Below, piece by piece: positions 42,601-57,039 of a stretch of DNA of 64,000 bases. The position numbers and the translations under genes are program-made. This stretch comes from Nitrospiraceae bacterium (GTDB taxonomy: Bacteria; Nitrospirota; Nitrospiria; Nitrospirales; Nitrospiraceae). Under the pieces are notes generated by a model. It was given only the letters and a program-made list of their open reading frames with translations. It made no database searches and had not been told where the DNA came from. Within the stretch, counting starts at the first letter, position 1, and every line of letters starts with the position of its first letter. The DNA lies in the NCBI GenBank assembly GCA_037446055.1, contig JBBIJI010000016.1, forward strand, positions 1-64,000, written 5' to 3'.

Positions 42601-44572
42601 CGGATTCGGCGTGACGATCGTGGAGCCCTACGGGTCGACCTATCATGATCCGAAGAACGGCAAGCTGGTCTGGAGCGGTCCGATCGCGGACATTCACAGC
42701 AGCGAGCCGATCGGCTATGGAGTCAGCGGCAGCTTCCGTGAGCTGATGGTGTCCATCCACGACACGGTGCCTCACACCGTGAACGTGATCCAGGCGGGTA
42801 ATCCGCCCGGACAGCCGGTCGAAGTGGCGCTGGAAGCCGGTAAGACGGTGTCGTTCCAGATGCCGGAAAAGATCCTCAATGCGCCGAATCAGTACATCAA
42901 CGGCGGGACGCATACGACGGGGAGCGGTCTCAACTTCAGAGCCGAACCCTTTGCGCAACGTCTCGCGAACAATCCCGATACGTCCAAGCTGTTCAGCAGC
43001 GCGATCCACGGAGATCCCGATACGCCCTTGCTTCGCGCGTATGTGGGTGACACCGTGGTGTTCCGCCTGTTGCACCAGCTCATGAACGAGTCCCACGTGT
43101 GGACGCTCTCCGGCCATACGTTCCTGACGGAACGGTTTGCGGGAGACGCCAATCGGAAGTACTCGATTCACGTCGGGATTGCCGAGCGGTATGACCTGGT
43201 GACCAAGGCCGGTGGATTCCAAGGCATGCCGGGCGACTACATCCACTTCAATGGCCGAAGCTCGCACTTCGCCGAGGGTGGGTGGGGTATCTTCCGTGTG
43301 CTGGGGAAGCACGCGGACGACCTGATGCATCTGCCGACCGGCACGAAGCCGGTGGAAATCCCGGCCGTGCCGTCGTCAGTGTGCCCGTCCGATGCTCCTG
43401 TGAAGAACTTCAACGTGGTGGCGATGGATCGCCCGATGAAGCTCAACGCGAAGGCGCCGGACGCGATCGAGGTGGACTTCGAGCGTAAGATCGAGATGAC
43501 CGTGCCTGAGGGCAAGATCTACGCACTCGAGGAGGAAGTGACCAAAGTGGCCGGCGAAGTGATGCCGAATCCGCTCACGCTGCGGGTCAACTTGGGTGAC
43601 TGCATCAAAGTAAACCTGAAGAATAAGATGAAGGCGAGCCGGGCGTCGTTCTTCGCGCCGGGCCTGGCCTTCGATCCGAAAGACAGCCTGGGCCTGAACG
43701 TCGGGAACAACCCCGGCGATCAGACGATCGCTCCAGGCGAAAGCCGGACCTACACCTACTACGCGCATCCTGCCAACAAGGAGACGACGTCGTTGGTGTG
43801 GGATGGTGGCAACATCGTGACGAATCCGCGCAATGGTCTGTACGGCGCGGTGATCGTCGGGCCTCGTGGGTCGCAGTATCGCGATCCGGTCACGGGCGCC
43901 GACATCTCGCAGAAGAACTCCTGGAGGGCTGACGTGATCGTCGATGCCAGCCTGCCGGAGAATGTCGGCAAGCGGAATTACCGGGATGTGGCCCTCTTCT
44001 TCCAGGACGAGGACAACATCATCGGAACCGCGTTCATGCCCTATGTGCAGAACGTCGCGGGGCTGACGGCGGTCAACTACCGATCGGAACCGTACAAGTT
44101 CCGCGAGGAGCAGGGGTGCTCGCTGGGCAAGATCTTCCAGCCCTGCGTCGTAGCTAAGCCGGAAGATCCGGTGACGCCGTTGATCGAGGCGCACGCCGGC
44201 GATCCGGTCCGTATCCACGTCATCGGCGCCAACAGCGAGCAAAACGGGATGTTCGGGATCGAGGGCCATGAATGGCCGATCGAGCCCTACATGCCAGGGG
44301 CCGACCAGATCAGCGTCGTGGAGTACGCCGGGTCCGAGACCCTGGATGTCTTCCTCCGCGGCGGTGCGGGCGGACCGTATCGTCAGGTGGGAGACTTCGT
44401 GTGGTCCAACACCCGGTTGCCCTACACGCAATCAGGTCAGTGGGGCTACCTCCGTGTGTTGCCGGTCGGCGACTCCCGGATTCAACCGCTCGGCGCTGCG
44501 GCAATGGGCGCCAAGCGTGCGGAGACTCTACCGGAGCCCCAGGCTATTCCGACGGCCATGAAGCAGGAATAG
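39626..44572 (+). CDS. giant multicopper oxidase-like protein (1648 aa, multiple cupredoxin domains; MofA/MnxG-class size)
   Basis: Shine-Dalgarno AAGGAGG 6 nt upstream. N-terminal RR-containing signal-like segment. Copper motifs HSHHPHSG (HxH), LFHCHVAHHYVAGMWGY (HCH...H...GM), HPHFFQFD and WHDHAFGATTWPHGGFG (HxH). Confidence 0.85.
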   Translation: MTSYFYNPKRRRCRDQAMFGLQAAVFASSLLAAPWLFAAGPGDQSHQGHATPVSMPGWTQALKGQTVVENAIEGRAGNAEKMEMQHHRLMQKLEQQAQQDARAQQTSGAFNSMSMMHQYMGQDGSSFLLMTDAAKGEPVLSTGGRCPANAPTKQYDVSMINVEITLNRWLDYYPGYMYVLTENLDKVRAEEAKNKAAREKEGFDPGAVNTGLQGDMIQPLVLRANQGDCVKMTLRNQMEGEDGSLFIQASSMIVSATGKPATTTNPDSILAPGKSQEFEWYIHPHMQEGVRQFHSYSHDRELTVLGLFGAFVIEPKGSRYLDPLGTGPAPEAKSGWQVMIDNGSGPDFREHVIFYHEVGDEAFRPLNKKGDFLPQRDPLTDAYRPGGRALNYRSEPFGIDQMHLQHEYFGFEDESMAYSAYTFGDPPTTIPRGYLGDPTKWRIVHGGSEVFHSHHPHSGSIRWIRSPRAEPQDFWAAAADGPIKYPVVRTKSDRVDVEVIGPSEALDLEAEGGAGQSQHLAGEFLFHCHVAHHYVAGMWGYGRVYNTLQVGPGHTDTMPDLRELPDRQGRIKMGVTSDKLIGTTVDWFGKQFKIVARNQKTDWKANPAVVNIKDWVEMYLPAQGKPGHTDDEKGQIMSYDATVWDWKWDGDVAKGERESTAKYPKYPAAAKWDDSTRPNILFDPTTGKMSWPLFKPHFGKRVPFSANHSGAPWLEPIHQDENGERTSEPARPGENGRWSLCPDNANTKFYNIKFIRLPITLAKKQGKEPPIVDKDGLIYVLAEEERLVRANDDLKYPLVLRANVYDCVDSILTSEWDDDDFTNFQASKINIHPHFFQFDTGNSDGVISGFEYEMSVRPYTMHEKKNKHGLPVPMNSKLVEAAKAGAKSIKIKMATGATKYHVNTELQVGADCLEPSKDTTTSLKRDASCAEVARIKEISGDTITFHKPLKHNHPVGDIVTPEFVRYRWWVDVDMGTVFWHDHAFGATTWPHGGFGVTIVEPYGSTYHDPKNGKLVWSGPIADIHSSEPIGYGVSGSFRELMVSIHDTVPHTVNVIQAGNPPGQPVEVALEAGKTVSFQMPEKILNAPNQYINGGTHTTGSGLNFRAEPFAQRLANNPDTSKLFSSAIHGDPDTPLLRAYVGDTVVFRLLHQLMNESHVWTLSGHTFLTERFAGDANRKYSIHVGIAERYDLVTKAGGFQGMPGDYIHFNGRSSHFAEGGWGIFRVLGKHADDLMHLPTGTKPVEIPAVPSSVCPSDAPVKNFNVVAMDRPMKLNAKAPDAIEVDFERKIEMTVPEGKIYALEEEVTKVAGEVMPNPLTLRVNLGDCIKVNLKNKMKASRASFFAPGLAFDPKDSLGLNVGNNPGDQTIAPGESRTYTYYAHPANKETTSLVWDGGNIVTNPRNGLYGAVIVGPRGSQYRDPVTGADISQKNSWRADVIVDASLPENVGKRNYRDVALFFQDEDNIIGTAFMPYVQNVAGLTAVNYRSEPYKFREEQGCSLGKIFQPCVVAKPEDPVTPLIEAHAGDPVRIHVIGANSEQNGMFGIEGHEWPIEPYMPGADQISVVEYAGSETLDVFLRGGAGGPYRQVGDFVWSNTRLPYTQSGQWGYLRVLPVGDSRIQPLGAAAMGAKRAETLPEPQAIPTAMKQE

Positions 44573-44650
44573 TACGCATTGAGTCATGAGGACCGGGTGG
44601 TACAGGGGAGGTCCCTCGCCACCCGGCCTTCAGTCTTGTCTGGTTTCTGA

Positions 44651-44695
44651 GGGGGGGGAGCTGCGCGCAATGTGTGGCTCCCCTGTCTTTTTTTA
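44651..44695 (+). terminator. rho-independent terminator after the multicopper oxidase gene
   Basis: Stem GGGGAGC/GCTCCCC with a 15-nt loop, followed by tgtcttttttt. Confidence 0.6.
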
Positions 44696-44713
44696 GAAGT
44701 TAGGAGTTTTTTT

Positions 44714-44790
44714 GAGTTATGAGTTATGAGTGTTGAGTGGGGGCACATGGAAGCTCAGAACCTTCAGCGCAGAACTCATAACTCAGAACT
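44714..44790. repeat. family-1 palindromic repeat element: gagttatgagttatgagtgttgagtgg ... cagaactcataactcagaact
   Basis: Read directly. The two arms are reverse complements built from GAGTTATGA/TCATAACTC units. Confidence 0.65.
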
Positions 44791-44808
44791 TTAGAAAAGG
44801 AGGCCGAA

Positions 44809-45738
44809 GTGAAACAAATCATGACAAAGGCCGTCGTCGCGGTGCTCGTAGCCGGCTGCCTCAGCGTCCCCGCCTACGCCTATGAAGAGGTGACGGTCAC
44901 CGATGGCGGGAGTATCTCCGGATCCGTCACGCTTGTAGGGGAGGTGCCGAAGCCCAAGGGGTACAACCTCACGACGCTGCCGGATGCCATCTATTGCGGA
45001 CGTATCTCTGACGGCAGGGGGTGGCGTCTGCTCCAGCCGTTCAATGTGGGTGAGCACGGAGAATTCCGCCAGGTCGTCGTGTTGCTCCAGGAAATCGAGA
45101 AGGGGAAACCGTTCGGCGCGTACAAGCCTCCTCGGATCGAGGCGCGGGATTGCCGCTTCATGCCGTTCGTGACCGTCGTTCGCGATCACCACGATGTCGT
45201 GGTCGTAAATATGGACCCGGCGATGCACGATATCCAGGCCTATGAAACCTCGCATCTGGGGCCTCGGGTCTTGTTCAACGTTCCGCTTCCCATCAGCCCG
45301 CGGTATCCCCACGAAGCCGGGCTCAGCGCGCACTTCCACAAGCATTACGAAGGCACGCCGATGAACCAAACGGTCAAGATGACCAAAGGCCGCGAGATTT
45401 TCACGATGCAGTGCGGGTTTCACGCGTACATGGAAAGCTGGGCGTTGGTCGTGGATCATCCCTACTACGCGATTACCGACCAAGACGGCCGGTTCGAGAT
45501 CGACGACATTCCGCCCGGCACATACAAGGTCACCATCTGGCATCCCTATGTGCGCGAAACGTACGAAGAGACTGTGATCATCAAGCCGAAAGAGGAGACG
45601 ACCGTCGGCTTCAAAGTCGCTGCTCCGACCGGCCGCCTTTATGCCAATCAAATGGTCGAGAACGCATACGTGCGCTACACGATTACGGAGGACGTTCAGT
45701 CCCAAATCATTCCGACGTTGGAGAAGCAGACGTTCTAG
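44809..45738 (+). CDS. secreted cupredoxin-like protein (amicyanin-type C-x2-H-x2-M site) fused to a C-terminal beta-sandwich domain (carboxypeptidase-regulatory-like)
   Basis: GTG start with AAGGAGG 5 nt upstream. Lipobox VAGC. Motifs HHDVVVVNMDP (candidate His ligand) and QCGFHAYM (Cys-x2-His-x2-Met). C-terminal motif DGRFEIDDIPPGTYKVTIWH. Paralogous to 59356-60177. Confidence 0.7.
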   Translation: MKQIMTKAVVAVLVAGCLSVPAYAYEEVTVTDGGSISGSVTLVGEVPKPKGYNLTTLPDAIYCGRISDGRGWRLLQPFNVGEHGEFRQVVVLLQEIEKGKPFGAYKPPRIEARDCRFMPFVTVVRDHHDVVVVNMDPAMHDIQAYETSHLGPRVLFNVPLPISPRYPHEAGLSAHFHKHYEGTPMNQTVKMTKGREIFTMQCGFHAYMESWALVVDHPYYAITDQDGRFEIDDIPPGTYKVTIWHPYVRETYEETVIIKPKEETTVGFKVAAPTGRLYANQMVENAYVRYTITEDVQSQIIPTLEKQTF

Positions 45739-45746
45739 TGGGCAAT

Positions 45747-45822
45747 AGTCATTCGTCATTAGTCATTGGCGGGGGTCATCGAATTCTTTCACCAATGACC
45801 ATTGACCCTTGACCAGTGACGA
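45747..45822. repeat. family-2 palindromic repeat element (GTCATTNGTCATT / CCAATGACCATTGAC units)
   Basis: Read directly: agtcattcgtcattagtcattgg ... caccaatgaccattgacccttgaccagtgacg. Confidence 0.65.
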
Positions 45823-45837
45823 AAAGGCACAAGAGGC

Positions 45838-46746
45838 GTGGCAGGACCGACACTACATGCCGGATTTGTAAGCCTGATGGCATGGAGCCTACTGTCCGCC
45901 GTCGCGCAGGCCGATCACCTCACGCCGAAACATGACCCCTGGGCGCAGCCCTGGGAGCTGGAGCGGTTGGCGTTGCTGGAGGTTCCCGATGACATGGTGT
46001 TCGTGCCGGCAGGATCGTTCTTGATGGGCAGCGATCCTCGGGTGGATCGCGCGGCTGGGCCGCAGGAACAACCGCAGCGATCGGTCGTGCTCGATGCTTT
46101 TGCCATCGACCGGTACGAGGTCACGAACGTTCACTATCTCCGGTTCGTGTTGGCCACAGGGGCCACGTGGCCGCCGTATTGGACGCAGGATCCCTTCCCG
46201 GAGAAGCAGTCGCGGCACCCGGTCATTGGGGTGAGTTGGGAGGAAGCGGATCGCTACTGCCGGTGGGTGGGGAAGCGTCTTCCGACCGAGGCGGAATGGG
46301 AAAAGGCGGCGCGAGGGGGCGATGGTCGCATCTTCCCCTGGGGCGACGAGCCGGCGGGGTGGATCAAGAGCAACATCGCCCATCCGGGGTCCAAACGAGG
46401 CGTGAAGTATCCCCCGTTGGCGAACGTCGACCGGTATGAGCGCGGCGTCAGCCCTTACGGGGTCTACCAGATGGCGGGCAACGTGAGCGAATGGGTCGCC
46501 GATTGGTTTGATCCTGAATATTACCGGAAAGGAGTCAACGAGAACCCGAGAGGGCCGGCCGACGGCGAAGACAAGGTCTTCAGGGGAGGGTCGTGGAACG
46601 AGGACCCGGAGGTGGCGCGATCGGCCGGGCGGAATGCGGCAGCGCCGGACCACAGGAGTTATCTGATCGGGTTCCGGTGCGCGAGATCAGTCATAAACGT
46701 CAATGGTCAATTGTCAATGGTCAACGGAGGCGGACAAAGTCATTAG
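45838..46746 (+). CDS. FGE-sulfatase fold protein, single-Cys PvdO/NirV-like subfamily, secreted (copy 1); C-terminal 19 aa encoded by family-2 repeat
   Basis: GTG start. Signal peptide ends in AQA. Motifs RGGSWNEDP and GFRCARS. The tail VINVNGQLSMVNGGGQSH is translated from the repeat gtcataaacgtcaatggtcaattgtcaatggtcaac. Confidence 0.8.
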   Translation: MAGPTLHAGFVSLMAWSLLSAVAQADHLTPKHDPWAQPWELERLALLEVPDDMVFVPAGSFLMGSDPRVDRAAGPQEQPQRSVVLDAFAIDRYEVTNVHYLRFVLATGATWPPYWTQDPFPEKQSRHPVIGVSWEEADRYCRWVGKRLPTEAEWEKAARGGDGRIFPWGDEPAGWIKSNIAHPGSKRGVKYPPLANVDRYERGVSPYGVYQMAGNVSEWVADWFDPEYYRKGVNENPRGPADGEDKVFRGGSWNEDPEVARSAGRNAAAPDHRSYLIGFRCARSVINVNGQLSMVNGGGQSH

Positions 46747-46852
46747 TCATCGGTCATTGGCGAAAAGTCTCTCTTGCCACCCAATGACCGTTGACCAATG
46801 ACATCTTCTGCTCCAGTGACCAATGACGATTGACCGTCGACCAATGACCGAA
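46689..46852. repeat. family-2 palindromic repeat element (long copy, about 160 nt)
   Basis: Read directly: reiterated tgaccaatgac/gtcattggtca units on opposing arms. It overlaps the 3' end of the preceding CDS. Confidence 0.65.
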
Positions 46853-46868
46853 ACAAGGAGGCCGAGTA

Positions 46869-47852
46869 ATGGAAGCGAAGAATATGGGTGCGTATAGGAA
46901 GCTTGAGTGGGTCATCAACGCGTTGCTGATCGCGGCAGCGATCCTCGCGCTGGTGAAGGTCGCGTGGGGACTCGATACGCAGGATATCACGGTCGAGTGG
47001 ACCGCTGAAGGGAAGAAGATCGCCGCGCAACGGGTGGCCGACTGGCCGGTCAAGGAGGAGATGGTCCTGGTCCCTGCCGGCGAATTTCTCATGGGCAGCG
47101 ACAAGAAAGTGGATCGCTTGGCGTATCGCTCCGAGATGCCGCAGCGCAGCGTGTATCTCGATGCATTCGAGATCGACAAATACGAAGTGACCGCGCTGCA
47201 GTACCTCAAGTTTGTGCTGGCCGCGAACCGGCCACCACAGCTCGACTGGCGATATGACGGCGGCAACTTCCAGGAAACCATGGCGCATCACCCGATCATG
47301 CACGTGAGCTGGTACGACGCGGACGCCTATTGTAAGTGGGCCGGGAAGCGCCTCCCGACCGAAGCCGAGTGGGAGAAGGCGGCGCGCGGGACGGATGGTC
47401 GGATCAATCCGTGGGGCAACCAGACGGCAGGATTGAGCCGGGCGAACTTCGGCCGCTCGGGACTGTCCGGGCCGGTTCGCGACCGGCCCGAACGGCTGCT
47501 GCTGTATCCGCCGATCATCTCGGTCGACAAATATGAGAACGCCGTGAGTCCCTACGGCATCCATCAGATGATCGGCAACGTGGCTGAATGGGTGGCGGAC
47601 TGGTACCAACCCGATTATTACGCGACGGCTCCGAGCCGCAATCCGAAGGGGCCGGAAACAGGAACGCAAAAAGCCTTCCGCGGCGGCGGCTGGATCGACA
47701 GCACCACCACGATGCGGGCGGCGATGCGGAATGGGACCGACCCCAACACGAAGATGAATTGGCTGGGCTTCCGGTGCGCGCGCGACGCGCAGAATGATCG
47801 GGCCCTATCTGAGTCGCCGCAGGTACGGGTCTCGCGGGCGAGTGGGGAATAA
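46869..47852 (+). CDS. FGE-sulfatase fold protein, single-Cys PvdO/NirV-like subfamily, secreted (copy 2)
   Basis: Strong Shine-Dalgarno AAGGAGG. Signal/TM segment. Motifs MVLVPAGEFLMGSD, RGGGWIDSTT and GFRCARD. Confidence 0.85.
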   Translation: MEAKNMGAYRKLEWVINALLIAAAILALVKVAWGLDTQDITVEWTAEGKKIAAQRVADWPVKEEMVLVPAGEFLMGSDKKVDRLAYRSEMPQRSVYLDAFEIDKYEVTALQYLKFVLAANRPPQLDWRYDGGNFQETMAHHPIMHVSWYDADAYCKWAGKRLPTEAEWEKAARGTDGRINPWGNQTAGLSRANFGRSGLSGPVRDRPERLLLYPPIISVDKYENAVSPYGIHQMIGNVAEWVADWYQPDYYATAPSRNPKGPETGTQKAFRGGGWIDSTTTMRAAMRNGTDPNTKMNWLGFRCARDAQNDRALSESPQVRVSRASGE

Positions 47853-47875
47853 GATTCTCGCTTGGGAGAGGGCGG

Positions 47876-48406
47876 GTGAACCTGGTCGTCCATATCCCGG
47901 AAACGTCGGTCGAAGCGACGCCCTATGTGCAGACACTCATGAAACGGGCGCCGAGCTTCACGATCGAAGGGCAAGACTGGATCGCGATTTTCCCGCAATT
48001 GCCCGATGCCATCGATCTGGCGCTCCAGATCGTGGGTGAAAGCGTCCGCGTTCCGGACGCCTGGGCGAGCATGAACGGACGGCAGATCTCGAGCCTCCTG
48101 CGGCTGTGGGCGAGGCTGGAGTGTTACCGCGAGAGCCTCGATGCGCCGAGCCCTGAAGAGCACTGCCTTCGCAAGGCGGGCAAACACAATCTTCTGGAGG
48201 GCTGCTCGGGCCCGACCTGTCCCGTGTCTTGCCAATTTGTGTGCATGCCATGCCGCGCGGAGATTCAGAGTAGCGGTGTACCGCCCGTCGAAGGGCACCT
48301 CTCGCGCCTCGCAGTCACCGCCGAGGTGGAGTGGTGCCCCAATCTTCGCCTGCCCGAAAACCGGCGAGTAGCGAATAGAGAACAGCGAACAGCGAGCAGA
48401 GAATAG
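47876..48406 (+). CDS. hypothetical protein with Cys-rich C-terminal region (CSGPTCPVSCQFVCMPC); 3' end runs into family-3 repeat
   Basis: GTG-start ORF immediately after FGE copy 2. Seven Cys in 25 residues. The last 14 codons are repeat-derived. Confidence 0.35.
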   Translation: MNLVVHIPETSVEATPYVQTLMKRAPSFTIEGQDWIAIFPQLPDAIDLALQIVGESVRVPDAWASMNGRQISSLLRLWARLECYRESLDAPSPEEHCLRKAGKHNLLEGCSGPTCPVSCQFVCMPCRAEIQSSGVPPVEGHLSRLAVTAEVEWCPNLRLPENRRVANREQRTASRE

Positions 48407-48510
48407 CCATGGAAAAGCTGATAGCGAGTAGCTGATGGCCAATAGCGAGCAACTCCGAGCATCCTGCTCCTGCTGTTTTCTATTCGCTACCAGCTATTCG
48501 CTGTTCGCTG
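48364..48510. repeat. family-3 palindromic repeat element (AGCGAATAG / GAACAGCGA units versus CTATTCGCT / TCGCTGTTC)
   Basis: Read directly: gagtagcgaatagagaacagcgaacagcgagcagagaatagcc ... ctattcgctaccagctattcgctgttcgctg. Confidence 0.7.
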
Positions 48511-48672
48511 TCCCCATCATAGGCCGAATGGCCTATTCCCCTGCCTGACAAGAATCACATTGGATGCCGGAGGCAGTCAAGGCGCCTCTGCGAAAGATTG
48601 CGTAGGCTTGCGGCGCGTGTGGGCTGTCTCGATACATCGACAATTCGACACATCTTACAAAGGAGGAGCGTG

Positions 48673-49365
48673 ATGAAGAGATACGATCAGAGAGTGAGGG
48701 CCACGAGCCTGATCATCATGGTCTTGCTGGCTCTCGGGACCATGTTTGCGCCCTGGTCGGCCTGGGCGGAGGAGACCGGCAATATGGTGGTGTTCAAGGG
48801 CGGGTTCATGAATCTGAGCGAGGACCGCGGCAGGCAGATTTTTACCGACACGAATGGCCTCACGGGAGTCAACGGAGGCAACGCCGGGTGGTATGTCGGA
48901 GCGTGGTTGGACTTGGGCCTTTCCAAAGATGCCTGGGGTCTGATGAAGGGAATCACAGGGATAGGAGAAATCGGTTTGCAGTTCAACCGGATCAATTCAG
49001 CGAGAGTGAATAACACCGCTGGGAGCGTGGCTGCCCATACTGTCACCGGTATTACCGCAGTCGATCCTCAGGTGGTCCAACTCACCATGGTGACCATCGA
49101 CGTGGCGCCGAAGCTGAAGTTTATGGAGGGCAACGCGTTTCGGCCCTGGATCATTCCTGTTGGGTTGGACATCCACGTGATCAGCCCCCCCTCGAATCGA
49201 ACGCAATATCTCGACGTCGGCGTGCAATTCGGCGCGGGGTTTGAATATGCAGTCTGGAAGGCCTTCAAGGTTGGAGCGGATGCCCGTTACCACTTGACGG
49301 CTAACATGACCAACACGAACAACTCTTACTTCCAGGTCGGGCCGTACGTCGGGATTACGTTCTGA
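48673..49365 (+). CDS. outer-membrane beta-barrel protein (OmpW/porin-like)
   Basis: Shine-Dalgarno AAAGGAGG. Signal peptide ends in AWA-EE. Alternating amphipathic strands. C-terminal Phe (GITF). Confidence 0.65.
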   Translation: MKRYDQRVRATSLIIMVLLALGTMFAPWSAWAEETGNMVVFKGGFMNLSEDRGRQIFTDTNGLTGVNGGNAGWYVGAWLDLGLSKDAWGLMKGITGIGEIGLQFNRINSARVNNTAGSVAAHTVTGITAVDPQVVQLTMVTIDVAPKLKFMEGNAFRPWIIPVGLDIHVISPPSNRTQYLDVGVQFGAGFEYAVWKAFKVGADARYHLTANMTNTNNSYFQVGPYVGITF

Positions 49366-49371
49366 TGGTAA

Positions 49372-49515
49372 GAAGCGAATAGCTGGTAGCAGGTAGCGGA
49401 TTGCTCTCGAACAGAAGCGAATAGCTGATAGCGAATAGCGGGTAGCTCTGAACTTCTTGCTGCAAGCTGTTCGCTACTTGCTATTCGCTATTCGGAGCTG
49501 CTCGCTACTTGCTCA
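49372..49515. repeat. family-3 palindromic repeat element, followed by a 14-bp perfect hairpin (CAACGGACAAGGTGG / CCACCTTGTCCGTT at 49543-49585)
   Basis: Read directly. Confidence 0.7.
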
Positions 49516-49732
49516 GAAAAGGGGAAGGAGCCTTGCCCAGCTCAACGGACAAGGTGGGGGCGTTCCTCCTGCCACCTTGTCCGTTCCCCGTTTGGCCCTC
49601 AAGTGAAGGGCCAATAGTGCAGAGCGGGATCTCCGGTATCGAGTTATATTTCTTGGGGATAGATTCCTGAGTGGTCTGCTCTGAACCCCGAACTCAATTC
49701 ATAATTCATCATTCATAATTCAGAATTGTTTC

Positions 49733-50839
49733 ATGCACCCCCCTCCACGCCTCGTCTACTGGGAAACCACGAAGCGCTGCAATTTACGCTGCGCGCACTG
49801 CCGTGCAATTCCGCAAACGCAGTCGTCTCCGGACGAGCTGTCGTTGGCCGAAGGCTTCAGACTCATCGACGCGATCGCCGAAGTGGGGCAACCCATTCTC
49901 GTGCTCACCGGCGGTGAGCCGCTGCTCCGGCGCGATCTCTTCGACTTAGCGACCTATGGCGCGTGGCGAGGGCTGCGAATGGCTCTGGCCACCAACGGGA
50001 CGCTTGTCAACCGCGACATGGCCAAACATGTCGTCGAGGCCGGATTCAAGCGAGTGTCGATCAGTCTCGACGGGCCGGACGCCGAGACGCATGACCGATT
50101 CCGCCGGGTACCGGGCGCGTTTGATCAAGCGGTGGATGGATTCATTCATCTGAAGGAGCTCGGCATGTCGATGCAGGTGAATACCACCGTCACCCTGCAG
50201 AACCGGGAACGACTTGAAGAGATCTATGAGTTGGTGCGGAAGCTCGGCGCCGACGCCTGGCATCTATTTTTGCTCGTCCCGGTCGGGTGCGGGCTGGAGA
50301 TCATGCGGACCGCCCAGCTCACTCCACGGGATTATGAAGAAGTGTTGTATTGGATCGACGAACTCGCTCAAACCGAGACGATGGAAATCCGCGCAACTTG
50401 CGCGCCGCACGCGCAGAGGATTCGGCTCCAGCGGCAGGCGATTGTTGAAGCCGGCGTTGATTCCCAGTCCGGTGATCGAACGGGTCGAGTTTCTAACTCA
50501 GAACTCAGAACTCAAGACTCAGAACTCCGAGCTTCCCGTCGCGGCTGCCTGGCCGGAACGGGCATTTGCTTTGTGTCTTATCGCGGGGAGGTCTTTCCAT
50601 GCGGCTACCTCCCGGTGTCAGCCGGGAACGTGCGCCAGCAATCCTTCAAATCTATCTGGGAGGAGGCGTCCGTTTTCGAGGAATTGCGTGATCCGAACTT
50701 GCTGCTGGGGAAGTGCGGAGTGTGCGAATATCGAATCGTCTGCGGCGGCTGCCGCGCGCGGGCCTTCGGGCAGACGGGCATTTATCTCTACGAAGAACCG
50801 TTCTGCAATTATCTTCCTGGCTCGGCGAGGACTGAATAG
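49733..50839 (+). CDS. radical SAM protein with C-terminal SPASM/twitch domain (anSME/NirJ/PqqE-like maturase); carries an in-frame repeat-derived 13-15 aa insertion
   Basis: Radical SAM motif CNLRCAHC. C-terminal motifs GCLAGTGICFVSYRGEVFPCG and CGVCEYRIVCGGCRARAF. The insertion VSNSELRTQDSELRAS is encoded by aactcagaactcagaactcaagactcagaactccgagc (50495-50532). No Shine-Dalgarno at the first ATG, so the start is uncertain. Confidence 0.8.
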   Translation: MHPPPRLVYWETTKRCNLRCAHCRAIPQTQSSPDELSLAEGFRLIDAIAEVGQPILVLTGGEPLLRRDLFDLATYGAWRGLRMALATNGTLVNRDMAKHVVEAGFKRVSISLDGPDAETHDRFRRVPGAFDQAVDGFIHLKELGMSMQVNTTVTLQNRERLEEIYELVRKLGADAWHLFLLVPVGCGLEIMRTAQLTPRDYEEVLYWIDELAQTETMEIRATCAPHAQRIRLQRQAIVEAGVDSQSGDRTGRVSNSELRTQDSELRASRRGCLAGTGICFVSYRGEVFPCGYLPVSAGNVRQQSFKSIWEEASVFEELRDPNLLLGKCGVCEYRIVCGGCRARAFGQTGIYLYEEPFCNYLPGSARTE

Positions 50840-50882
50840 CGAGCAGCGAACAGAGAATAGCGAGCAGCGAACAGCGGGCAGC
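50834..50882. repeat. family-3 repeat element (tgaatagcgagcagcgaacagagaatagcgagcagcgaacagcgggcagc); short partner arm gagctattcgctagttcag at 50968-50986
   Basis: Read directly. It overlaps the radical SAM stop codon. Confidence 0.65.
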
Positions 50883-51083
50883 TTTATGACGCCCTTTCCT
50901 TGTCCTTCCCCCGGGGACCCGTTGCTCCCCAAGATGCAGCGGGTGATGGGGAGGGAAGGGTGGGGGTGAGCTATTCGCTAGTTCAGATGAAAATAGTGCC
51001 CGGGACGGGGACAGGCACGCCGCTGCGGCGAGCCGGTCCCCTTCGAGCAAGATCGAGGGTCGAGCGACGGACGGGCGAGGGGC

Positions 51084-51902
51084 TTACGCGGCATTTCGAT
51101 ACAGGTAATCGGCGCCCACCGGTAAATGACCCAGCCATTGGAAGAAACGAGTCACTTCTTCACCGCGGAAAATGGAGCCATGTTGGGGGAGCATGGCGGT
51201 AATCCGGTACCCGGCCAGCTTCTTGATCATCCCGGCGACGGCCCGGTTACAGGACATGTACCGTTGGTGGAATCCCTGCATGGCTCTGATATGCGCGTCC
51301 CAGTTGTCGATGATGAGGTGGAAGGCATTGTCTTTATAGACAGACGCCCCGACATCGCCGGTAAATAAGAATCCGCTCTCCGAATCGAATAGCAGAATAT
51401 TCCCGGGTGAATGGAGATACGGCGCGGAAATGCACTCGAGGCGCCCTCCGCTCTTCAGCGTGATCGTCGCTCCTTCGTCGCCCACCGGGATATAGTTCAA
51501 CCTATAACTCTTCCCCGTGACATCCCGTGACTCGTAATGCGGCATGAACCGCTGCCACAGAGAGGAAATTACCAACTGGATGTTTTCGTTCCACTTCACC
51601 CAGCTCGGGAATGACGCGCAGATGTCGGGGTCTTGGTGGCTGAAATAGAGGTGCGAGACGGCGCTCGGTGACATCAGGTAACAGACCTTCTTGAATACCG
51701 GGGGGAAGCGGTCGAAGCCGCCGGGTTCCAGTAGGTAGCCTGCTCCTTCATCAATAATCAGATACGAGTTGCACTCGATTTCCTCTCCGGTGGAGTGAGC
51801 GCCGACCCAATAGATCTTGTGCGAGTCACCGTCATAGAGAAGGATGGGTTGGTCGGGGTCAACTGGCGAGTTCTTGAGTTCAAGCAATGGAAGCTTGGGC
51901 AT
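51084..51902 (-). CDS. MBL-fold protein, flavodiiron/ODP-like diiron domain without flavodoxin module
   Basis: Motifs HSTGEEIECNSYLIIDEGAGYLLEPGG, FSHQDPD and ITAMLPQHGSIFRG resemble the N-terminal beta-lactamase-like domain of flavodiiron and oxygen-binding diiron proteins. Confidence 0.6.
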   Translation of the reverse strand: MPKLPLLELKNSPVDPDQPILLYDGDSHKIYWVGAHSTGEEIECNSYLIIDEGAGYLLEPGGFDRFPPVFKKVCYLMSPSAVSHLYFSHQDPDICASFPSWVKWNENIQLVISSLWQRFMPHYESRDVTGKSYRLNYIPVGDEGATITLKSGGRLECISAPYLHSPGNILLFDSESGFLFTGDVGASVYKDNAFHLIIDNWDAHIRAMQGFHQRYMSCNRAVAGMIKKLAGYRITAMLPQHGSIFRGEEVTRFFQWLGHLPVGADYLYRNAA

Positions 51903-52181
51903 GCGAACACCTCCTCATGATTGGTAATGGGGTTATGCCCGGCCTCCAGACGGCATCTTAGGCGAAGCACGCCGCGATGCAAAGCCAATTCACCTTTTGA
52001 ACTTCGGCAGACGCCGGAGATCGATCCCCGAGCAACTCCGAGTAACAGGCGTGGGCAGCGAATGTATGGCGCGAACGGCAGGCAGCGAATAGCGAGGACG
52101 ATTTGGTGAAGCATGATTCGGTGATCCGGTGGAGTAATGTGCGAAACTTCGCCAGATCACCAAATCACCAATTCATACTTT

Positions 52182-52967
52182 TCACGGTCCGAGGTCTCGG
52201 GCGCACCGGAAGCCGAGGTCAAAAAACGTGCTCGCCGGTCCGAAGTAGTTTCGGTTGGTCGAGCGCAGGTCATAGAGCATGTTGTACCAAGAGCCTCCGC
52301 GCGCGACCTTGCTTCCGCCGCGAGCGGGCCCCGTCGGATTCCGATCGGGACTGCTCTTGTAGTAATTCACGTCGTACCAATCTGCGACCCACTCCCAGGT
52401 ATTGCCCGCCAGCTCATAGATCCCGTACGGGCTCTTCCCCGGCTCTAGACTTCCCACAGGCAACAGCGTCTCATACCCGATCCACGTCGCGCCGAAGTTC
52501 GCGCGGAGACGCGTCGGCTCCTCGTTCCCCCATGGGAACCTTCGTCCGTCGGTGCCCCGCGCGGCTTTCTCCCACTCGGCTTCGGTCGGGAGACGTTTCC
52601 CATAGTGGCGGCAGTAGGCATCGGCGTCATGCCAGGTGACGCCGACGACCGGACGACTGCCGTCGGTGACATGGTTCACATCCTTCCACTTCGACGGCGG
52701 CTCGCGACCGGTCTCTTGCATGAATCGACCGTATTGGGCAGTCGTCACCTCGAACTTATCCATATAGAACGCATCGAGGGAGACTCGATGGACAGGTTTC
52801 TCATCCGCCTCCCACCCTTCACTGCCCATCGTGAATTCTCCGGCTGGAACGAGAACCATCGGGGCGCCGTCCTTTCCGGTGATCTCGGGTGATCGTTCCT
52901 GAGCAAGGGCAAGTGCCGTCCACGAAATGACTGTTGCGAGGAGCGCGGTGAAGATTGAGAGTCGCAT
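52182..52967 (-). CDS. FGE-sulfatase fold protein, single-Cys PvdO/NirV-like subfamily, secreted (copy 3)
   Basis: Motifs MVLVPAGEFTMGSE, WHDADAYCRHYGKRLPTEAEWEKAARG, RGGSWYN and GFRCARDLGP. Start trimmed to MRLSIFTALL (signal peptide). Confidence 0.8.
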   Translation of the reverse strand: MRLSIFTALLATVISWTALALAQERSPEITGKDGAPMVLVPAGEFTMGSEGWEADEKPVHRVSLDAFYMDKFEVTTAQYGRFMQETGREPPSKWKDVNHVTDGSRPVVGVTWHDADAYCRHYGKRLPTEAEWEKAARGTDGRRFPWGNEEPTRLRANFGATWIGYETLLPVGSLEPGKSPYGIYELAGNTWEWVADWYDVNYYKSSPDRNPTGPARGGSKVARGGSWYNMLYDLRSTNRNYFGPASTFFDLGFRCARDLGP

Positions 52968-53440
52968 GGGCGGCGCCGTGCGTCGACTCAAACGATATAG
53001 CGAGGTCGCGGGCGATACGCCCTCAATAAGCTTGGCCATGCAAATCGAACGCCGAAGGGTATTCATTTGGCATCCCTTCTGGGCCACCAGAAGTTCGACA
53101 GCTCATCGAGCAAGGTCGATTGCCTCGATGCGCTCGGAAACGGTGAACCATACATCATTCTCCGTTGAGGCTCTCTCGACGAACGCTTCATACTTACTTA
53201 ACACCGCCCATTCTCTACAGCCCCGCCAGCGAAGGATCTCAGCGATAGGGAGCTTAACATTCGGTCCGCCCAGCCTTCTGTGGCATTGTGCAGCAGCTCA
53301 ATGAGGGTGTTTGTAGCTCTTTGACCCAGAGACGTACTGCATCCGCGCGGCAAGTCCCGTGGAATATCTTTCAACACGCATGAATAGTTAGCTCATTCCT
53401 CGGCTTGCTCGTGATTACAGGTGACGAAGAGGTGTAGTCC

Positions 53441-54214
53441 TTGCAACCCAGGTTTCTTGAGTACGCGCTTGCAAAGTCTTGCGCAAGTCCACGAGGCAGG
53501 GGAGTGAGACCCAAGCATTGCCTCATTGAAGGCTGCGACAGTTGCGGTTTACGTAGCAAGGCTGTGCTGTGCAACCTCACCGGAGAAGATCTCGCCGGCT
53601 TCGAGAAAATCAAGCGCTCCCTGATGTACGAACCTCAGCAGACGGTCTTCTACGAGGGCCATGCCTGCCTGGGCTTGTACTTGCTCTGTGCCGGCAAGGT
53701 CAAGCTTACCCGCTCTTCGGTCCGCGGCCAGCGACAGATCGTGCGCATCCTAGAGAGCGGCGAACTGATCGAGAAGCACGCGTTTCGGGCCAAGGCCATC
53801 CACGAAGTCACCTGTGAGACCCTGGAACCATCCCAGATCTGCCTGATCGAAAAGGAGCCCTACATGGCGCTCATCCAGCGCAACCCTGGGCTGGCCTTGA
53901 GCGTGATCCAACTCCTAAGCAGTGAACTGGGCATGAATATGGACCAGCTCGACCAGTTCACCTTCAAGACCGCGCGCGAGCGCCTGGCGGGACTGCTCGT
54001 GGAACTGGGCGAACGATTCGGCAAGAAGGCGGACGGCGGGCTTCTCGTGGGAATCACGCTCAAACGCGAGGAGGTGGCTGAAATGGCGGGCATCACCGTC
54101 GAAACGGCCATTCGGCTCCTCAGCGCCTTTCGGGACGAAGGACTCGTCAACATAGACGGACGAGCGATCACCCTCCTCAAGCCGGATCGCCTGGCCCGCA
54201 TCGCACGGCACTAA
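53441..54214 (+). CDS. Crp/Fnr family transcriptional regulator with N-terminal Cys cluster
   Basis: cNMP-binding fold (FYEGHACLGLYLLCAGKVKL). C-terminal HTH (REEVAEMAGITVETAIRLLS). N-terminal CLIEGCDSCG...C cluster reminiscent of FNR. Start uncertain (TTG in the ORF track). Confidence 0.75.
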   Translation: MQPRFLEYALAKSCASPRGRGVRPKHCLIEGCDSCGLRSKAVLCNLTGEDLAGFEKIKRSLMYEPQQTVFYEGHACLGLYLLCAGKVKLTRSSVRGQRQIVRILESGELIEKHAFRAKAIHEVTCETLEPSQICLIEKEPYMALIQRNPGLALSVIQLLSSELGMNMDQLDQFTFKTARERLAGLLVELGERFGKKADGGLLVGITLKREEVAEMAGITVETAIRLLSAFRDEGLVNIDGRAITLLKPDRLARIARH

Positions 54215-54216
54215 TC

Positions 54217-54412
54217 TGATAGCGAATAGCGAACAGCCAGCAGCTAACAGCAAATAGCGAGCAGCGAATAGCTCCGAGCGGCGCCTCTTTCAGCAGAATC
54301 CCCCTTTCTTCCCTGTCTTGCCCGGCTTATACCACCTAACTCTTAGCTGTTCCTAGCATTTAGCTACTCGCTATTCGCTGACTTTCGGCTACGCGCCACC
54401 TGCTGCTCGCTG
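54217..54412. repeat. family-3 palindromic repeat element (arms 54217-54275 and 54343-54412)
   Basis: Read directly: gatagcgaatagcgaacagccagcagctaacagcaaatagcgagcagcgaatagc ... tagctactcgctattcgctg. Confidence 0.65.
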
Positions 54413-54577
54413 ATCCCGAGCTATAGGTCCAAAGACCCATTCCTAGGCTTTGAGAAGAATCATAAGCCGGACCGGCTAACCACAGTGTTGGCTTACCTCG
54501 TTTTCTTTACTGTGGGCGTCGAAAAAGAAGGGTGCGGGCCGAACGCATGACGATGGCTCCCTCCACAGAGCCGGCCA

Positions 54578-55105
54578 ATGATGAGGCGATCACGGCGCAC
54601 ACGTAAGGAAGCAGCAGTGGACCCCGTGGCCCTTCTGAAACGGGAACACGAGATGATCCTGGAACAGTTGCACATGATCGAGGCCACGATCGGACCGAAG
54701 AGCAAGAAAGGAGCTGCGCTGTTGGAGCCGGGTCGAAGCACGCTCTGCGAACTGTTCCGTTTTTTCACCGGACGAGTGGACGTGCACTACAAGCGGGAAG
54801 CGACGCTGATTTCCGCGCTCAGTCGCGTTGTTGGGCGTAAGAACGGAGAACGCGAACAATTCGAGGGCTTGCTCTGTGAGCATCGCGCACTGAAAGCGGA
54901 TGCGGCGAGCATTATGAAGCGACTTTCGAAACACACTGCAACCCCGTCCGTTGCCGACGGCGCCGATCGGTTGGGAATTCGGTCGTTCGTGAAGCGCTTC
55001 CGCAGTCATATTGCATGCGAGGAGCGCATTCTCTACGTGCTGGCCGGCATGCGACTGAACGCCGAGCAAAAACAGCGCGTCGGTCATCGCATGTTGCAGG
55101 TCTGA
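54578..55105 (+). CDS. hemerythrin-like (HHE cation-binding) domain protein
   Basis: Motifs LLKREHEMILEQL, HYKREATLI and ACEERILYV give the H...HxxxE...H...HxxxxD-type spacing of hemerythrin-like metal sites. The 5' end is probably shorter than the ORF track shows. Confidence 0.6.
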   Translation: MMRRSRRTRKEAAVDPVALLKREHEMILEQLHMIEATIGPKSKKGAALLEPGRSTLCELFRFFTGRVDVHYKREATLISALSRVVGRKNGEREQFEGLLCEHRALKADAASIMKRLSKHTATPSVADGADRLGIRSFVKRFRSHIACEERILYVLAGMRLNAEQKQRVGHRMLQV

Positions 55106-55109
55106 CAAT

Positions 55110-55202
55110 GCAGCGAATAGCGAACAGCCGGCAGCGAGTAGCAGGCAGCAGGCAGCTCAAATCGACAAGCTGCTAGCTACTCGCTACTCGCTATTGGCTA
55201 CC
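55110..55202. repeat. family-3 palindromic repeat element
   Basis: Read directly: gcagcgaatagcgaacagccggcagcgagtagcaggcagcaggcagc ... tagctactcgctactcgctattggcta. Confidence 0.7.
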
Positions 55203-55290
55203 TGAAGAGAAGAAGGGAGGTGAGCTGACGGCAACAGTGGTCCCAGGCACAGCCAGTAATCTGACAGCGAGCGTTTTGTAGAGAGGAGGA

Positions 55291-56499
55291 ATGATCATGA
55301 GAAGGACAAGAGGAATGGTCGTCGCGATGATGGCGCTCACCCTCTGCGCGTTTGCGGCGGGTGTCGCGTTTGCGGCCGACCCAGAAGTCAAGACGCACAA
55401 GCAACCCTATCCGGACCGATGGAACTCGATCAAAAACCCGCCGGTGAGCAAGTTCGGTTATCCACCTGATATCTGGGCCGCCGAGAACATGTCGTTCCGG
55501 GCGACCGGCAAGATCGTCGAATACTACCTGACGATCGAGCAGATCAAGTGGAACATCGTCGGCGACGTGTACGTGACGCAGTGGGCGTTCAACGGGCAGG
55601 TGCCCGGACCGCTCCTGACGGCGACCGAGGGCGACATCGTCCGCATTACGGTCAAGAACAACACGACCATTGACCACACCATTCACCCGCACGGGTTCTG
55701 GGTGCCGGTCAATATGGACGGCGTGCCGAACATCACCCAGTTGTCGATCCAACCGGGCGAGACGTTCGTGTATGAGTTCATGGCGAAGCCCTCAGGGCAC
55801 CATTTCTATCACTGCCACGTGAACGCGGCGACGCACATGGACATGGGACTCTATGGGTCCTTCGTCGTGTATCCGCCGGCTGAAGCGGCGAACGGGACGA
55901 ATGCGAACCAGGTGGCCGATCCTGCAGCCAGAATCGACCGGGACTACGTGATGATCCTGGACGAGGTGGACACGCGGATCGACGACGGCGAGAGCGGAGG
56001 CATGGAACTCGGCCATCCGAGGAAGATCGCCAACTTCAACTACTTCACGATCAACGGCAAATCCTTTCCCGAGACGCCGATGATCTTCGTGCGGGAAGGC
56101 GACATCGTGCGGGTCCGATTCCTGAATTTCGGTTACTGGTCCCATGCGATGCACCTGCACGGCCATGCGTTTGCGCAAGCCAGTGCCGAGTGCGATCGCT
56201 GTCCGAAATACTGGGAGTTCAGGGACGCGATGAACCTGAACGCCGCGCAACGAACCGACATCGTCTTTAAGGCCAACAATCCCGGCCGGTGGGTGTTCCA
56301 CTGCCACCGGGTGCCCCACGCGACGAATGACGGAGCCTATCCGGGCGGACTCCTGACGATCATCGAGTACGAGAACAACCCGTACCTGCCGGTGATTCCG
56401 CAGTTGCCGTTGCCGGGGTTCAAGCACATGGACGATCCGAAGACCATGAACATGTCGCTGTCGCATAAGGCGATCAAGAAGCAGCTCGCGGGCGAATAG
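55291..56499 (+). CDS. two-domain multicopper oxidase (secreted)
   Basis: Shine-Dalgarno GAGAGGAGGA. Signal peptide ends in AFA-AD. Domain 1 motifs HTIHPHG and HHFYHCHVNAATHMDMG. Domain 2 motifs MHLHGHAF and WVFHCHRVPHATNDG. No NirK-specific signatures. Confidence 0.8.
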   Translation: MIMRRTRGMVVAMMALTLCAFAAGVAFAADPEVKTHKQPYPDRWNSIKNPPVSKFGYPPDIWAAENMSFRATGKIVEYYLTIEQIKWNIVGDVYVTQWAFNGQVPGPLLTATEGDIVRITVKNNTTIDHTIHPHGFWVPVNMDGVPNITQLSIQPGETFVYEFMAKPSGHHFYHCHVNAATHMDMGLYGSFVVYPPAEAANGTNANQVADPAARIDRDYVMILDEVDTRIDDGESGGMELGHPRKIANFNYFTINGKSFPETPMIFVREGDIVRVRFLNFGYWSHAMHLHGHAFAQASAECDRCPKYWEFRDAMNLNAAQRTDIVFKANNPGRWVFHCHRVPHATNDGAYPGGLLTIIEYENNPYLPVIPQLPLPGFKHMDDPKTMNMSLSHKAIKKQLAGE

Positions 56500-56576
56500 C
56501 CGTAGAACTGGAACGGTGCTTGAGGAGGTGAGGAGCTCCCGCTCCTCCCTCCCGGCGTCGAGAGGAGGGAGAGGTC

Positions 56577-56903
56577 ATGAAAATGTCACGGTTGTTACTG
56601 GTCGCGATCTCCTGGACGATCCTGTTTGGTGGCGTGGCATTCGCTGATCGCGTGGTCCATTCCGGGAATGTCACCAAGATCAACAAGGACTCCGGGGCGG
56701 TCGAGATCGAGTTACGGAACGGGGGAACGAAGGCATTTACGGTGACGGACAAAGACATTCTGGCCAGTCCCGTGTGGAAAAAGCGGCTCAACGTCGGCGA
56801 CGGCGTGGACATCACGGCCGACGGCGACAAGGTCATCACGGTGCTTCGCCGGAATCTGCCGGTCACGATCCGGCCTGCGGAGACCGCAGCGGCTCCTAAA
56901 TAG
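56577..56903 (+). CDS. small secreted protein (108 aa), tandem paralogue A
   Basis: Signal peptide ends in AFA-DR. Mature region is more than 90% identical to the product of 57040-57372. Confidence 0.55.
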   Translation: MKMSRLLLVAISWTILFGGVAFADRVVHSGNVTKINKDSGAVEIELRNGGTKAFTVTDKDILASPVWKKRLNVGDGVDITADGDKVITVLRRNLPVTIRPAETAAAPK

Positions 56904-57039
56904 GGAGGTCAAGAGACGGGAACGGGAAGTTCGGAATGAGTCCGGACTTCCGCTCACCTCAAGCCAAAGTCAGTTTCCTAATCCTGCCCGACCGTCTAGT
57001 AGATCAAGCGGAAGATCGTACCGAGGGGGAGGTAGAAGC

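Follow-up and report, generated by a model that had tools for sequence, protein, structure and literature searches.

Heptamer repeats of gene-boundary type translated within a hypervariable linker of an AhbD-like radical SAM/SPASM protein in a Nitrospira-like genome

We analyzed a stretch of 64,000 nucleotides from a Nitrospiraceae bacterium (assembly GCA_037446055.1, contig JBBIJI010000016.1, positions 1 to 64,000; hereafter, the window), in which a tandem array of 7-nucleotide units is translated as part of an enzyme gene. This gene encodes a radical SAM/SPASM protein (Table 1), with the Pfam domains Radical_SAM at residues 11-168 and SPASM at residues 272-331. Its best NCBIfam match was TIGR04545 (AhbD) with 425.2 bits, and because this score lies under the curated equivalog cutoff of 500 bits, we refer to the gene as AhbD-like only. 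The score against TIGR04053 was likewise under cutoff (373 bits for a cutoff of 395). Orthologues were found in Nitrospirota, with 65-83% identity. The open reading frame (ORF) is intact and has the expected residue at every invariant column of an alignment of 48 sequences, that is, the protein of the window and 47 homologues, 38 of these from the Nitrospira clade. The gene is part of a conserved Nitrospira-type cluster (39626-57400) whose synteny was observed in the relatives designated below as L081, L164, and L166, and also in L165 and L170.

The array was located by Tandem Repeats Finder at 50495-50527 (period 7, 4.7 copies, 84% matches, consensus AACTCAG), and a lag-7 scan placed it at 50493-50527. 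It is imperfect, only two adjacent units being identical. The residues it encodes are part of VSNSELRTQDSELRAS and precede C272, the first cysteine of SPASM. The initial annotation of this DNA had stated that a repeat unit, named family-1, is translated inside the radical SAM/SPASM protein and that it sits between the radical SAM core and the SPASM cysteine cluster; both statements were borne out, the array being in frame and its product, residues 255-265, lying in the inter-domain linker. AlphaFold2, run on the 48-sequence alignment, gave a fold that is confident overall (predicted template modeling score of 0.84), with a predicted local distance difference test score below 50 at residues 247-249 and 251-268, and the repeat-encoded residues are predicted to form a floppy loop. 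Among solved structures, none of AhbD type was near enough to place this loop, the best match (7vob) covering the radical SAM core only.

As the window comes from a metagenome assembly and repeats are error-prone, a sequencing or assembly artefact, or a pseudogene, was a first possibility, and an artefact was also what the initial annotation had named as a ground for refuting its claim. However, a second assembler gave the same sequence: a Logan contig of SRR11582173 (L083) was 100% identical over 49440-56106, array included, with the same reads possibly underlying both assemblies. In addition, the ORF is intact with all invariant residues of the family, and an orthologous array exists in L164. 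An artefact or a pseudogene is, in our view, barely conceivable.

Table 1. Coordinates of the repeat arrays, the host gene, and the repeat-encoded segments in the window.
Feature	Position	Strand	Remarks
AhbD-like radical SAM/SPASM gene, 368 residues	49733-50839	+	ORF; hosts the in-frame repeat
Hypervariable inter-domain linker, residues 236-268 (33 residues)	50438-50536	+	From alignment, blastn, and AlphaFold2
Family-1 heptamer array, AACTCAG AACTCAG AACTCAA GACTCAG AACTC	50495-50527	+	Encodes N255-L265
Family-1 array, single arm	29419-29451	-	14 nucleotides past the stop of ORF 27975-29405
Inverted pair of family-1-like arrays (TGAGTTA.. / ..CAGAACTCATAACTCAGAACT)	44709-44790	.	Between the giant multicopper oxidase gene and the next gene
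FGE1 tail, 19 residues and stop, of FGE-sulfatase gene 45838-46746	46687-46746	+	GTCAATG array 46695-46728
Further family-2 arms (AGTCATT.., CCAATGAC..)	46738-46850	.	Nested hairpins downstream of FGE1
Cys-rich protein tail, 16 residues and stop, of gene 47876-48406	48356-48406	+	AGCGAAY array 48364-48407
AATTCAT heptamer array	49693-49728	+	Ends 4 nucleotides before the radical SAM ATG; tandem-repeat scans
AGCGAAC/GAATAGC array	50834-50882	+	Starts in the last radical SAM codons; gives the TAG stop 50837-50839

The array belongs to a family with other copies in the window, which upheld the description of the segment as repeat-derived. Searching the whole window for three AACTCAG units with up to three mismatches yielded six matches at three loci (29423-29450 on the minus strand, 44766-44786, and 50495-50529), versus 0.00 expected from 100 shuffles. 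The inverted partner at 44709-44742 is a weaker match. Family-1 (ACTCAGA) thereby occupies the linker and three other loci, all of them gene boundaries. More generally, Tandem Repeats Finder and the lag-7 scan revealed some 22 heptamer arrays, all short, across the window, often paired in inverted orientation. All but one of the 22 were at gene boundaries, where they typically start within a few bases of a stop codon or end just before a start codon; the sole array inside a gene was that of the radical SAM linker. A few families recurred, namely AGCGAAY at 7 loci, GTCAATG at 4, and ACTCAGA at 3 plus the linker.

Comparison of orthologues showed that the linker is where these proteins differ. 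In the 48-sequence alignment, the segment between ..RLQRQ and RRGCLAG ranged from 12 to 51 residues and had no conserved sequence. Most linkers of the Nitrospira clade read as translated repeats, of at least six types, and the DNA showed each type to be built of repeats. Type A (peptide SVKREAS..LHEAR) is encoded by a GTGAAGC array and its complement, type B (VEVKVKVE..QPQPQP) by GAGGTT-type hexamers and their complement, type C (PSPSPLP..GERAGVRGE) by a perfect palindrome, CCCTCACCCTCCCCTCTCCCC..GGGGAGAGGGnTGGGGTGAGGGG, and type D (VRSLKFEVRS..SNCELRT) by GTTCGAA arrays in both orientations. Type E has the peptide EARGEGLEARG..PRAPSLSA, and the type of the window is common only to the window and to P0007, the protein of L164 (P numbers designate homologous proteins). 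Orthologue cassettes of types B, C, and D are hairpin-forming, with fold z scores of -3 to -6 and both arms complementary and translated, whereas the L164 linker, like that of the window, has no hairpin. A hairpin in the window's own linker was looked for and rejected (fold z of +0.5 to +0.7).

Repetition in the linker distinguished the clade from more distant proteins. Self-identity at lags 6 and 7 had a median of 0.45 in 15 clade members, versus 0.28 (maximum 0.41) in 151 outgroup orthologues, and a fold z below -2.5 was obtained for 6 of the 15 clade members versus 2 of the 151. The outgroup consisted of distant AhbD homologues from scans of contig collections, with 7 close loci among the matches listed. 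These differences in self-identity and folding indicated that repeat-built linkers are a trait of the Nitrospira clade. Repeat-free linkers of 12-15 residues were found in P0019, P0021, P0025, P0039, and P0044. Since these linkers and those of the outgroup are short and devoid of repeats, the cassettes are probably additions to a short ancestral spacer of about 12-13 residues.

Several linker repeats are members of families dispersed in the same genome. In L081, GTGAAGC was present in the linker and at two other loci, and ACTCAGA nowhere in 21 kb; the window shows the reverse, with GTGAAGC at no locus. One of the two other L081 loci is the tail of FGE1, an FGE-sulfatase-domain protein of the cluster, and its array is almost identical to the L081 linker array (GTGAAxC GTTAAxC GTGAAGC GTGAAGC), variant unit included. 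In L001, the linker unit GTGAAGC was found at one other locus of the contig. The type-C palindrome (CCCTCACCCTCCCCTCTCCCC..GGGGAGAGGG, ~45 nucleotides) is also dispersed in intergenic DNA. Four further intergenic copies of its arm lie within 12 kb of L167, whose linker is of type C, and the palindrome is intergenic as well in L081 (an exact 21-mer), L085, L084, and L171; dispersed copies were found with four mismatches allowed, a strict pattern matching linkers alone.

A possibility was that the array arose locally, by slippage of a chance ACTCAGA seed, its likeness to intergenic arrays then reflecting a genome-wide mutational or compositional bias and not copying. Indeed, many bacteria are reported to have an excess of heptamer simple-sequence repeats, for which polymerase slippage has been held responsible (Mrazek et al. 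2007, as summarised in PMC4679880 and PMC4692102). Likewise, an A/C difference shared by several units between the window and L164 (see below) shows homogenization in situ, and the L170 cassette looks as if the hexamer type of L171 had been expanded. Yet, the same heptamer occurs at three further loci in 64 kb where none is expected, the L081 linker and FGE1-tail arrays are alike down to their variant unit, and type-C linkers copy a complex dispersed palindrome that slippage cannot make. A purely local origin is, in light of these data, unlikely.

Another possibility, close to what the initial annotation had suggested, was that a mobile repeat recently transposed into the radical SAM gene of the window and that only an in-frame insertion in the linker survived. 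In favor of it, family-1 has other copies in the window, type-C palindromes exist in both intergenic DNA and the linker of other genomes, and the closest relative is devoid of the ACTCAGA array. This relative, L081, is 86-87% identical in nucleotide sequence in the flanks but 35% across the ~96-nucleotide linker; blastn homology stops at 50440 and resumes at 50537, and in between L081 has an unrelated GTGAAGC cassette. On lineage specificity, the comparison gave a mixed answer: the array is absent in L081 and in nearly all of the 47 homologues, and it is present in L164, whose gene is ~72-74% identical to that of the window and whose linker aligns with that of the window in the same register, with a single 3-nucleotide indel. 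There, GACTCAG CACTCAG CACTCAG CACTCAG sits at the position of the AACTCAG units, and three to four units share the same A/C change. Such a change across units reads as the signature of concerted evolution, by slippage or conversion, in a long-resident array. Moreover, identity between the two linkers (57-63%) is below the gene average (~72%), which fits old, weakly constrained DNA.

The anatomy of the array pointed in the same direction. Neither terminal inverted repeats nor a target-site duplication were visible in its surroundings (50480-50540). A 4-nucleotide CGAG on both sides of the array, the only candidate for a target-site duplication, was rejected, as L164 does not have it. The window's copy has one arm only and forms no hairpin (z +0.5), and the other family-1 copies need 3 mismatches in 21 nucleotides to match the array consensus. 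Recent transposition into this gene is therefore highly unlikely, and the array of the window is best read as old and evolved in concert, its recent mobility, once proposed, being unsupported.

In a simple neighbor-joining tree built without the linker, the window grouped with P0002, the L081 protein, and not with P0007. Since P0007 has the window-type linker, this grouping suggested that the cassette was swapped in the lineage of L081 or in that of the window. Cassette types were interleaved on the tree, and sister pairs with long shared branches but different cassettes were clear. One such change could be resolved. L168 (type A) and L169 (type C) are 98-100% identical save for ~130 nucleotides around the linker, and in this tract L169 is 83-86% identical to L167, as compared with 65-70% elsewhere in the gene. 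The divergent tract starts ~34 nucleotides upstream of the repeat, inside the conserved H-A-Q-R-I-R-L-Q-R-Q-A codons, and because it starts within conserved coding sequence, the donor was another allele of the radical SAM gene. The tract attests to allelic homologous recombination and not to the insertion of a naked element. Insertion, the route that the initial annotation had put forward, is not supported by this change. Judging from P0010, P0148, and P0034, ~90% identical proteins with three different cassettes, turnover is fast. Within clusters of 90% identity, no clean length step of 7 residues (21 nucleotides) was found, most length differences being at the termini. An origin of the array by 21-nucleotide (7-residue) duplication at the protein level was rejected, the period being 7 and not 21 by both Tandem Repeats Finder and the lag scan.

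What selection asks of such a linker can be read in part from the units themselves. Since 7 is not divisible by 3, each trinucleotide of a heptamer comes up in all reading frames once three copies stand in tandem. The unit of the window has no stop codon in the sense orientation, but its complement, CTGAGTT, contains TGA and would put it in every frame within three copies. Thus, only the observed orientation, a single arm, can be coding, which matches the lack of a hairpin in the linkers of the window and L164. In relatives, 0 of 3 in-frame GTGAAGC units keep TGA (TTA, TCC, and TTA are found instead), whereas the TGA is retained in 22 of 33 out-of-frame units and in intergenic copies; this count is partly tautological for intact ORFs, and it shows how arrays get patched. 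An open reading frame seems to be the sole apparent requirement on the linker.

Repeats also encode the ends of two proteins of the cluster, as predicted: the C-termini of ORFs 45838-46746 (FGE1) and 47876-48406 (a Cys-rich protein) are provided by arrays of family-2 (GTCAATG) and family-3 (AGCGAAY), respectively. The conserved body of FGE1 ends at ..LIGFRCAR (residue 283) and is followed by the tail SVINVNGQLSMVNGGGQSH (46687-46743). Orthologues end together at LIGFRCA(R) and then differ, with no tail in L170, CDAREA in L166, and DARETLNVKREARAEVR in L081. In L166, the in-frame TGA of a GTGAAGC-type unit is the FGE1 stop, and in L081 this unit reads TTA and the ORF is 12 codons longer. The Cys-rich ORF (176 residues) represents a true gene and is conserved as far as ..WCPNLRLP. 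Beyond this point, the window has the longest tail among orthologues, ENRRVANREQRTASRE (48356-48403), the stop TAG lying within a GAATAGC unit. Both tails are read-through into downstream arrays that abut or contain the stop codon, the ORF continuing where a stop is lost or missing, and the idea that they were in-frame insertions was not retained. Overall, the reading in the initial annotation was partly supported: the segment is derived from repeats, keeps the frame, and lies in a loop that tolerates it, whereas neither recent mobility of the window's copy nor insertion at the C-termini is borne out.

We also considered that the element might be functional, as an RNA or DNA signal such as a translational pause, an RNA processing or termination site, a binding site for a heptamer-specific protein, or a slippage-prone off/split switch. 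Most cassette types retain a strong potential for hairpins (z of -3 to -6) despite being translated, the site is occupied in most Nitrospira-clade orthologues, and arrays elsewhere hug stop and start codons. Besides, in L172 (1107-2212, Logan SRR22388051) a frameshift exactly in the repeat-built linker splits the orthologue into a 251-residue radical SAM ORF and a 117-residue SPASM ORF, with the GTG start of the second overlapping the TGA stop of the first (GTGA). Stop/start overlaps of this kind are typical of translational coupling. However, the split in L172 has three candidate explanations, namely gene fission, a pseudogene, and an error of assembly. Furthermore, the linkers of the window and L164 are without a hairpin, the clade members P0019, P0021, P0025, and P0039 have linkers of 12-15 residues and no repeat, sequence, length, and structure type are all unconserved, and slippage should be slow in an array as imperfect as that of the window. 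A function of the element is quite unlikely on this evidence. The same slim chance applies to the idea of the linker as a dedicated landing or retention site, kept because a hairpin or array acts there within the cistron, by pausing, by RNA processing or termination, or as a splitting switch. A pause would make ribosomes wait while the radical SAM core folds and loads its cluster, before SPASM emerges; a switch would turn the enzyme into a pair of subunits coupled in translation, on the model of L172. If true, the boundary arrays and the internal array would form one post-transcriptional punctuation system, perhaps read by a heptamer-binding protein.

The explanation that we favor, and consider probable, is that the in-frame segment is neutral passenger repeat DNA in a permissive, disordered loop. 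The linker is a tolerated dumping ground for genomic repeats and not the site of one recent jump. The probable course of events is as follows. This Nitrospira-like genome and its relatives pack their gene boundaries with heptamer arrays, often in inverted pairs and drawn from several families that recur at many loci. The spacer that joins the radical SAM barrel to the cysteines of SPASM would be unconstrained and probably disordered. In the Nitrospira clade, boundary-type repeats have come to occupy it and are translated, the window having a one-armed array of the ACTCAGA family. Once there, a cassette may change by slippage-type concerted evolution of its units and probably by template switching, which would keep hairpin arms complementary; wholesale replacement by recombination between alleles is what L168 and L169 show. 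Mutation by template switching is known from quasi-palindromes. Selection would only keep the frame open, through stop-free orientations, patching of in-frame TGA units, and a length that is a multiple of 3. At C-termini, arrays start at or within the stop codon, and the ORF reads on where no stop intervenes.

Several points weigh against this explanation. The link between linker families and genome families rests on partial contigs (10-64 kb) and holds for some genomes only; L164, L085, L165, and L170 had no extra copy of their own linker family within the contigs examined. No insertion event was caught, the only resolved cassette change being a recombination, and the gene tree is without support values. 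Heptamer types may also have originated by slippage in situ, with later convergence on common heptamers. Permissiveness, the only thing by which we explain the occupation of one site in many lineages, is an assumption, and no other internal coding site of the window is occupied. Finally, most cassette types other than that of the window retain a strong potential for hairpins though they are translated, and structure itself could be selected.

The arrays at gene boundaries deserve a description of their own. At orthologous intergenic sites compared between the window, L081, L164, and L166 (44560-44812, 45725-45845, 46670-46872, 48340-48600, and 49355-49730 of the window), each genome has a heptamer or hexamer hairpin, and the family differs from one genome to the other. 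For instance, between the multicopper oxidase gene and the next gene, we found TGAGTTA/GAACTCA in the window, GGACTGAG/CTCAGTCC in L081, and GAGGTC/AACCTC in L164. Boundary arrays thus keep their place while their sequence changes. A conserved GC-rich hairpin also follows the giant multicopper oxidase gene (44655-44697; L081 ~5373-5414; L164 ~3492-3530) and is made of GGGGGAGCnGCGCGCAAnGTGTGGCTCCCC and TTTTT in the window and L081, L164 having a related hairpin with a weak T-run. It looks like a genuine intrinsic terminator, standing beside repeat hairpins that are unconserved in sequence. A T-rich tract of period 7 (TTGCCTT-like; 60654-60681, and 19791-19821 in L081) lies within the 5' part of a conserved 231-residue ORF, where it probably encodes a hydrophobic N-terminal segment and is not a boundary repeat. 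A permissive Rfam search of 44000-56000 returned only sub-threshold microRNA-hairpin matches at repeat hairpins, and no known RNA family.

As for the neighborhood of the radical SAM gene, the cluster (39.6-56 kb) begins with a multicopper oxidase of 1646-1648 residues, followed by a CarboxypepD_reg-like protein, two FGE-sulfatase-domain proteins, the Cys-rich protein (~170 residues across the cluster genomes), a beta-barrel outer-membrane protein, the radical SAM/SPASM protein, and further genes. Further members, across the window and its relatives, are sometimes a gene for a HalD-like 2-oxoglutarate-Fe oxygenase and then those for Crp, hemerythrin, a 400-residue copper oxidase, and cupredoxins. 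Because the gene scores under both the AhbD and the TIGR04053 cutoffs and lies within a copper-enzyme cluster, its product may be a maturase for the copper-enzyme system rather than a heme synthase. The radical SAM gene is separated from the next FGE gene by a gene of the ODP family with a metallo-beta-lactamase fold (51084-51902, minus strand). The syntenic position in L081 has no such gene, which points either to a lineage-specific insertion or to its loss from L081.

Upstream of the radical SAM gene we noticed a conserved stem-loop at 49546-49583 (core 49552-49577), GGACAAGGTGGGGGCGTTCCTCCTGCCACCTTGTCC, also present in L166 (9912-9937), L170 (9867-9892), and L171 (157-182). Its loop has GTTCCTCCT, complementary to a GGAGG ribosome-binding site, and stem changes between genomes look compensatory (GGACGAGGTGAC..GTCACCTCGTCC in L170). 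This stem-loop, which had no Rfam family match, could be a regulatory RNA hairpin. No GGAGG-type ribosome-binding site was visible at the radical SAM start, and AAGGAGG precedes several neighboring genes (at 44809, at 46869, and that of the outer-membrane protein); translation of the radical SAM gene may start in an unusual or coupled manner. On the 3' side, the family of the array at 50834-50882 is kept in L081. Just beyond it, at 50886-50965, lies a C-rich/G-rich palindrome (..CCTTTCCTTGTCCTTCCCCC..GGGGAGGGAAGGGTGGGGG..) with a flavor like that of the type-C linker palindrome.

Repeats translated within enzymes have their classic precedent in the Rickettsia palindromic elements (RPEs), selfish repeats read in frame within enzymes (Ogata et al. 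2000 Science 290:347; 2002 Genome Res 12:808; as summarised in PMC10969869). The likeness is threefold: short repeats are dispersed, both intergenic and in frame inside conserved enzyme genes, and leave the host protein intact; the insertion is in a part of the protein predicted to tolerate it; and translation covers both arms of the palindromic orthologue cassettes (types B, C, and D), a trait shared with RPEs. However, RPEs are ~100-150 bp, encode a conserved peptide, and occur in many different genes, whereas here we see arrays of 7 or 6 nucleotides or a ~45-nucleotide palindrome (33-38 nucleotides for the array, 45-150 for the cassettes), at one internal coding site in 64 kb, the same site receiving many unrelated cassettes across lineages. 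The window's copy, in addition, is not palindromic. Compared by description, the array is not a member of an RPE family, from which its size and the missing palindrome set it apart.

The array is closer to the long simple-sequence repeats with heptamer units described in bacteria, such as the short tandemly repeated repetitive sequences of cyanobacteria, the GGGAATC-type repeats of Xanthomonas and Nostoc, and TAACTGA in Beggiatoaceae (PMC4692102, PMC4679880). It consists of heterogeneous 7-nucleotide units in tandem, in at least three copies, from a family with many, mostly intergenic, loci. As in those systems, there are few families per genome, mostly intergenic near start or stop codons and sometimes as inverted pairs, and length and sequence vary between close relatives at the same intergenic site. 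The orientation of TAACTGA inside coding sequence is also limited by stop codons (PMC4679880). In contrast, recurrent in-frame occupation of one protein linker and cassette swapping are absent from the descriptions of those repeats. Our keyword search of the literature found no description of heptamer repeats in Nitrospirota, "repetitive extragenic palindromic" giving incidental mentions only. Repetitive extragenic palindromes (REPs), which by definition seldom overlap coding regions (PMC12306157), and bacterial interspersed mosaic elements resemble the present repeats as short dispersed palindromes at the 3' ends of cistrons, and the type-C family looks REP-like. No GTAG/CGTC tag was noticed in the arrays read, and no gene for a REP-associated tyrosine transposase was identified, the genes of the window not having been systematically scanned for PF01797. 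Unlike miniature inverted-repeat transposable elements, the array has no visible terminal inverted repeats or target-site duplication. Finally, a repeat unit that is not a multiple of 3 inside an ORF, and the frameshift of L172 in a repeat-built linker, recall contingency loci, but the tract is short and imperfect and sits in the gene of a cytoplasmic enzyme of housekeeping type instead of a surface or restriction-modification gene.

Collectively, these observations mean that short boundary repeats of Nitrospira can become part of a protein, and that one permissive loop has been refilled repeatedly with unrelated repeat-built segments while the enzyme around it stayed nearly unchanged. The recurrent occupation of one linker by unrelated repeat cassettes, then shuffled by recombination, appears to be new. 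It offers a natural system for studying how selfish or mutationally generated repeats enter proteins, how fast cassettes turn over, and how they are exchanged between lineages by homologous recombination. In such genomes, linkers without homology and C-terminal tails encoded by repeats are to be expected in annotation and orthology pipelines, and the linker is a possible fine-scale strain marker for Nitrospira populations. Should the repeats prove functional in RNA or translation, their interest would be much higher.

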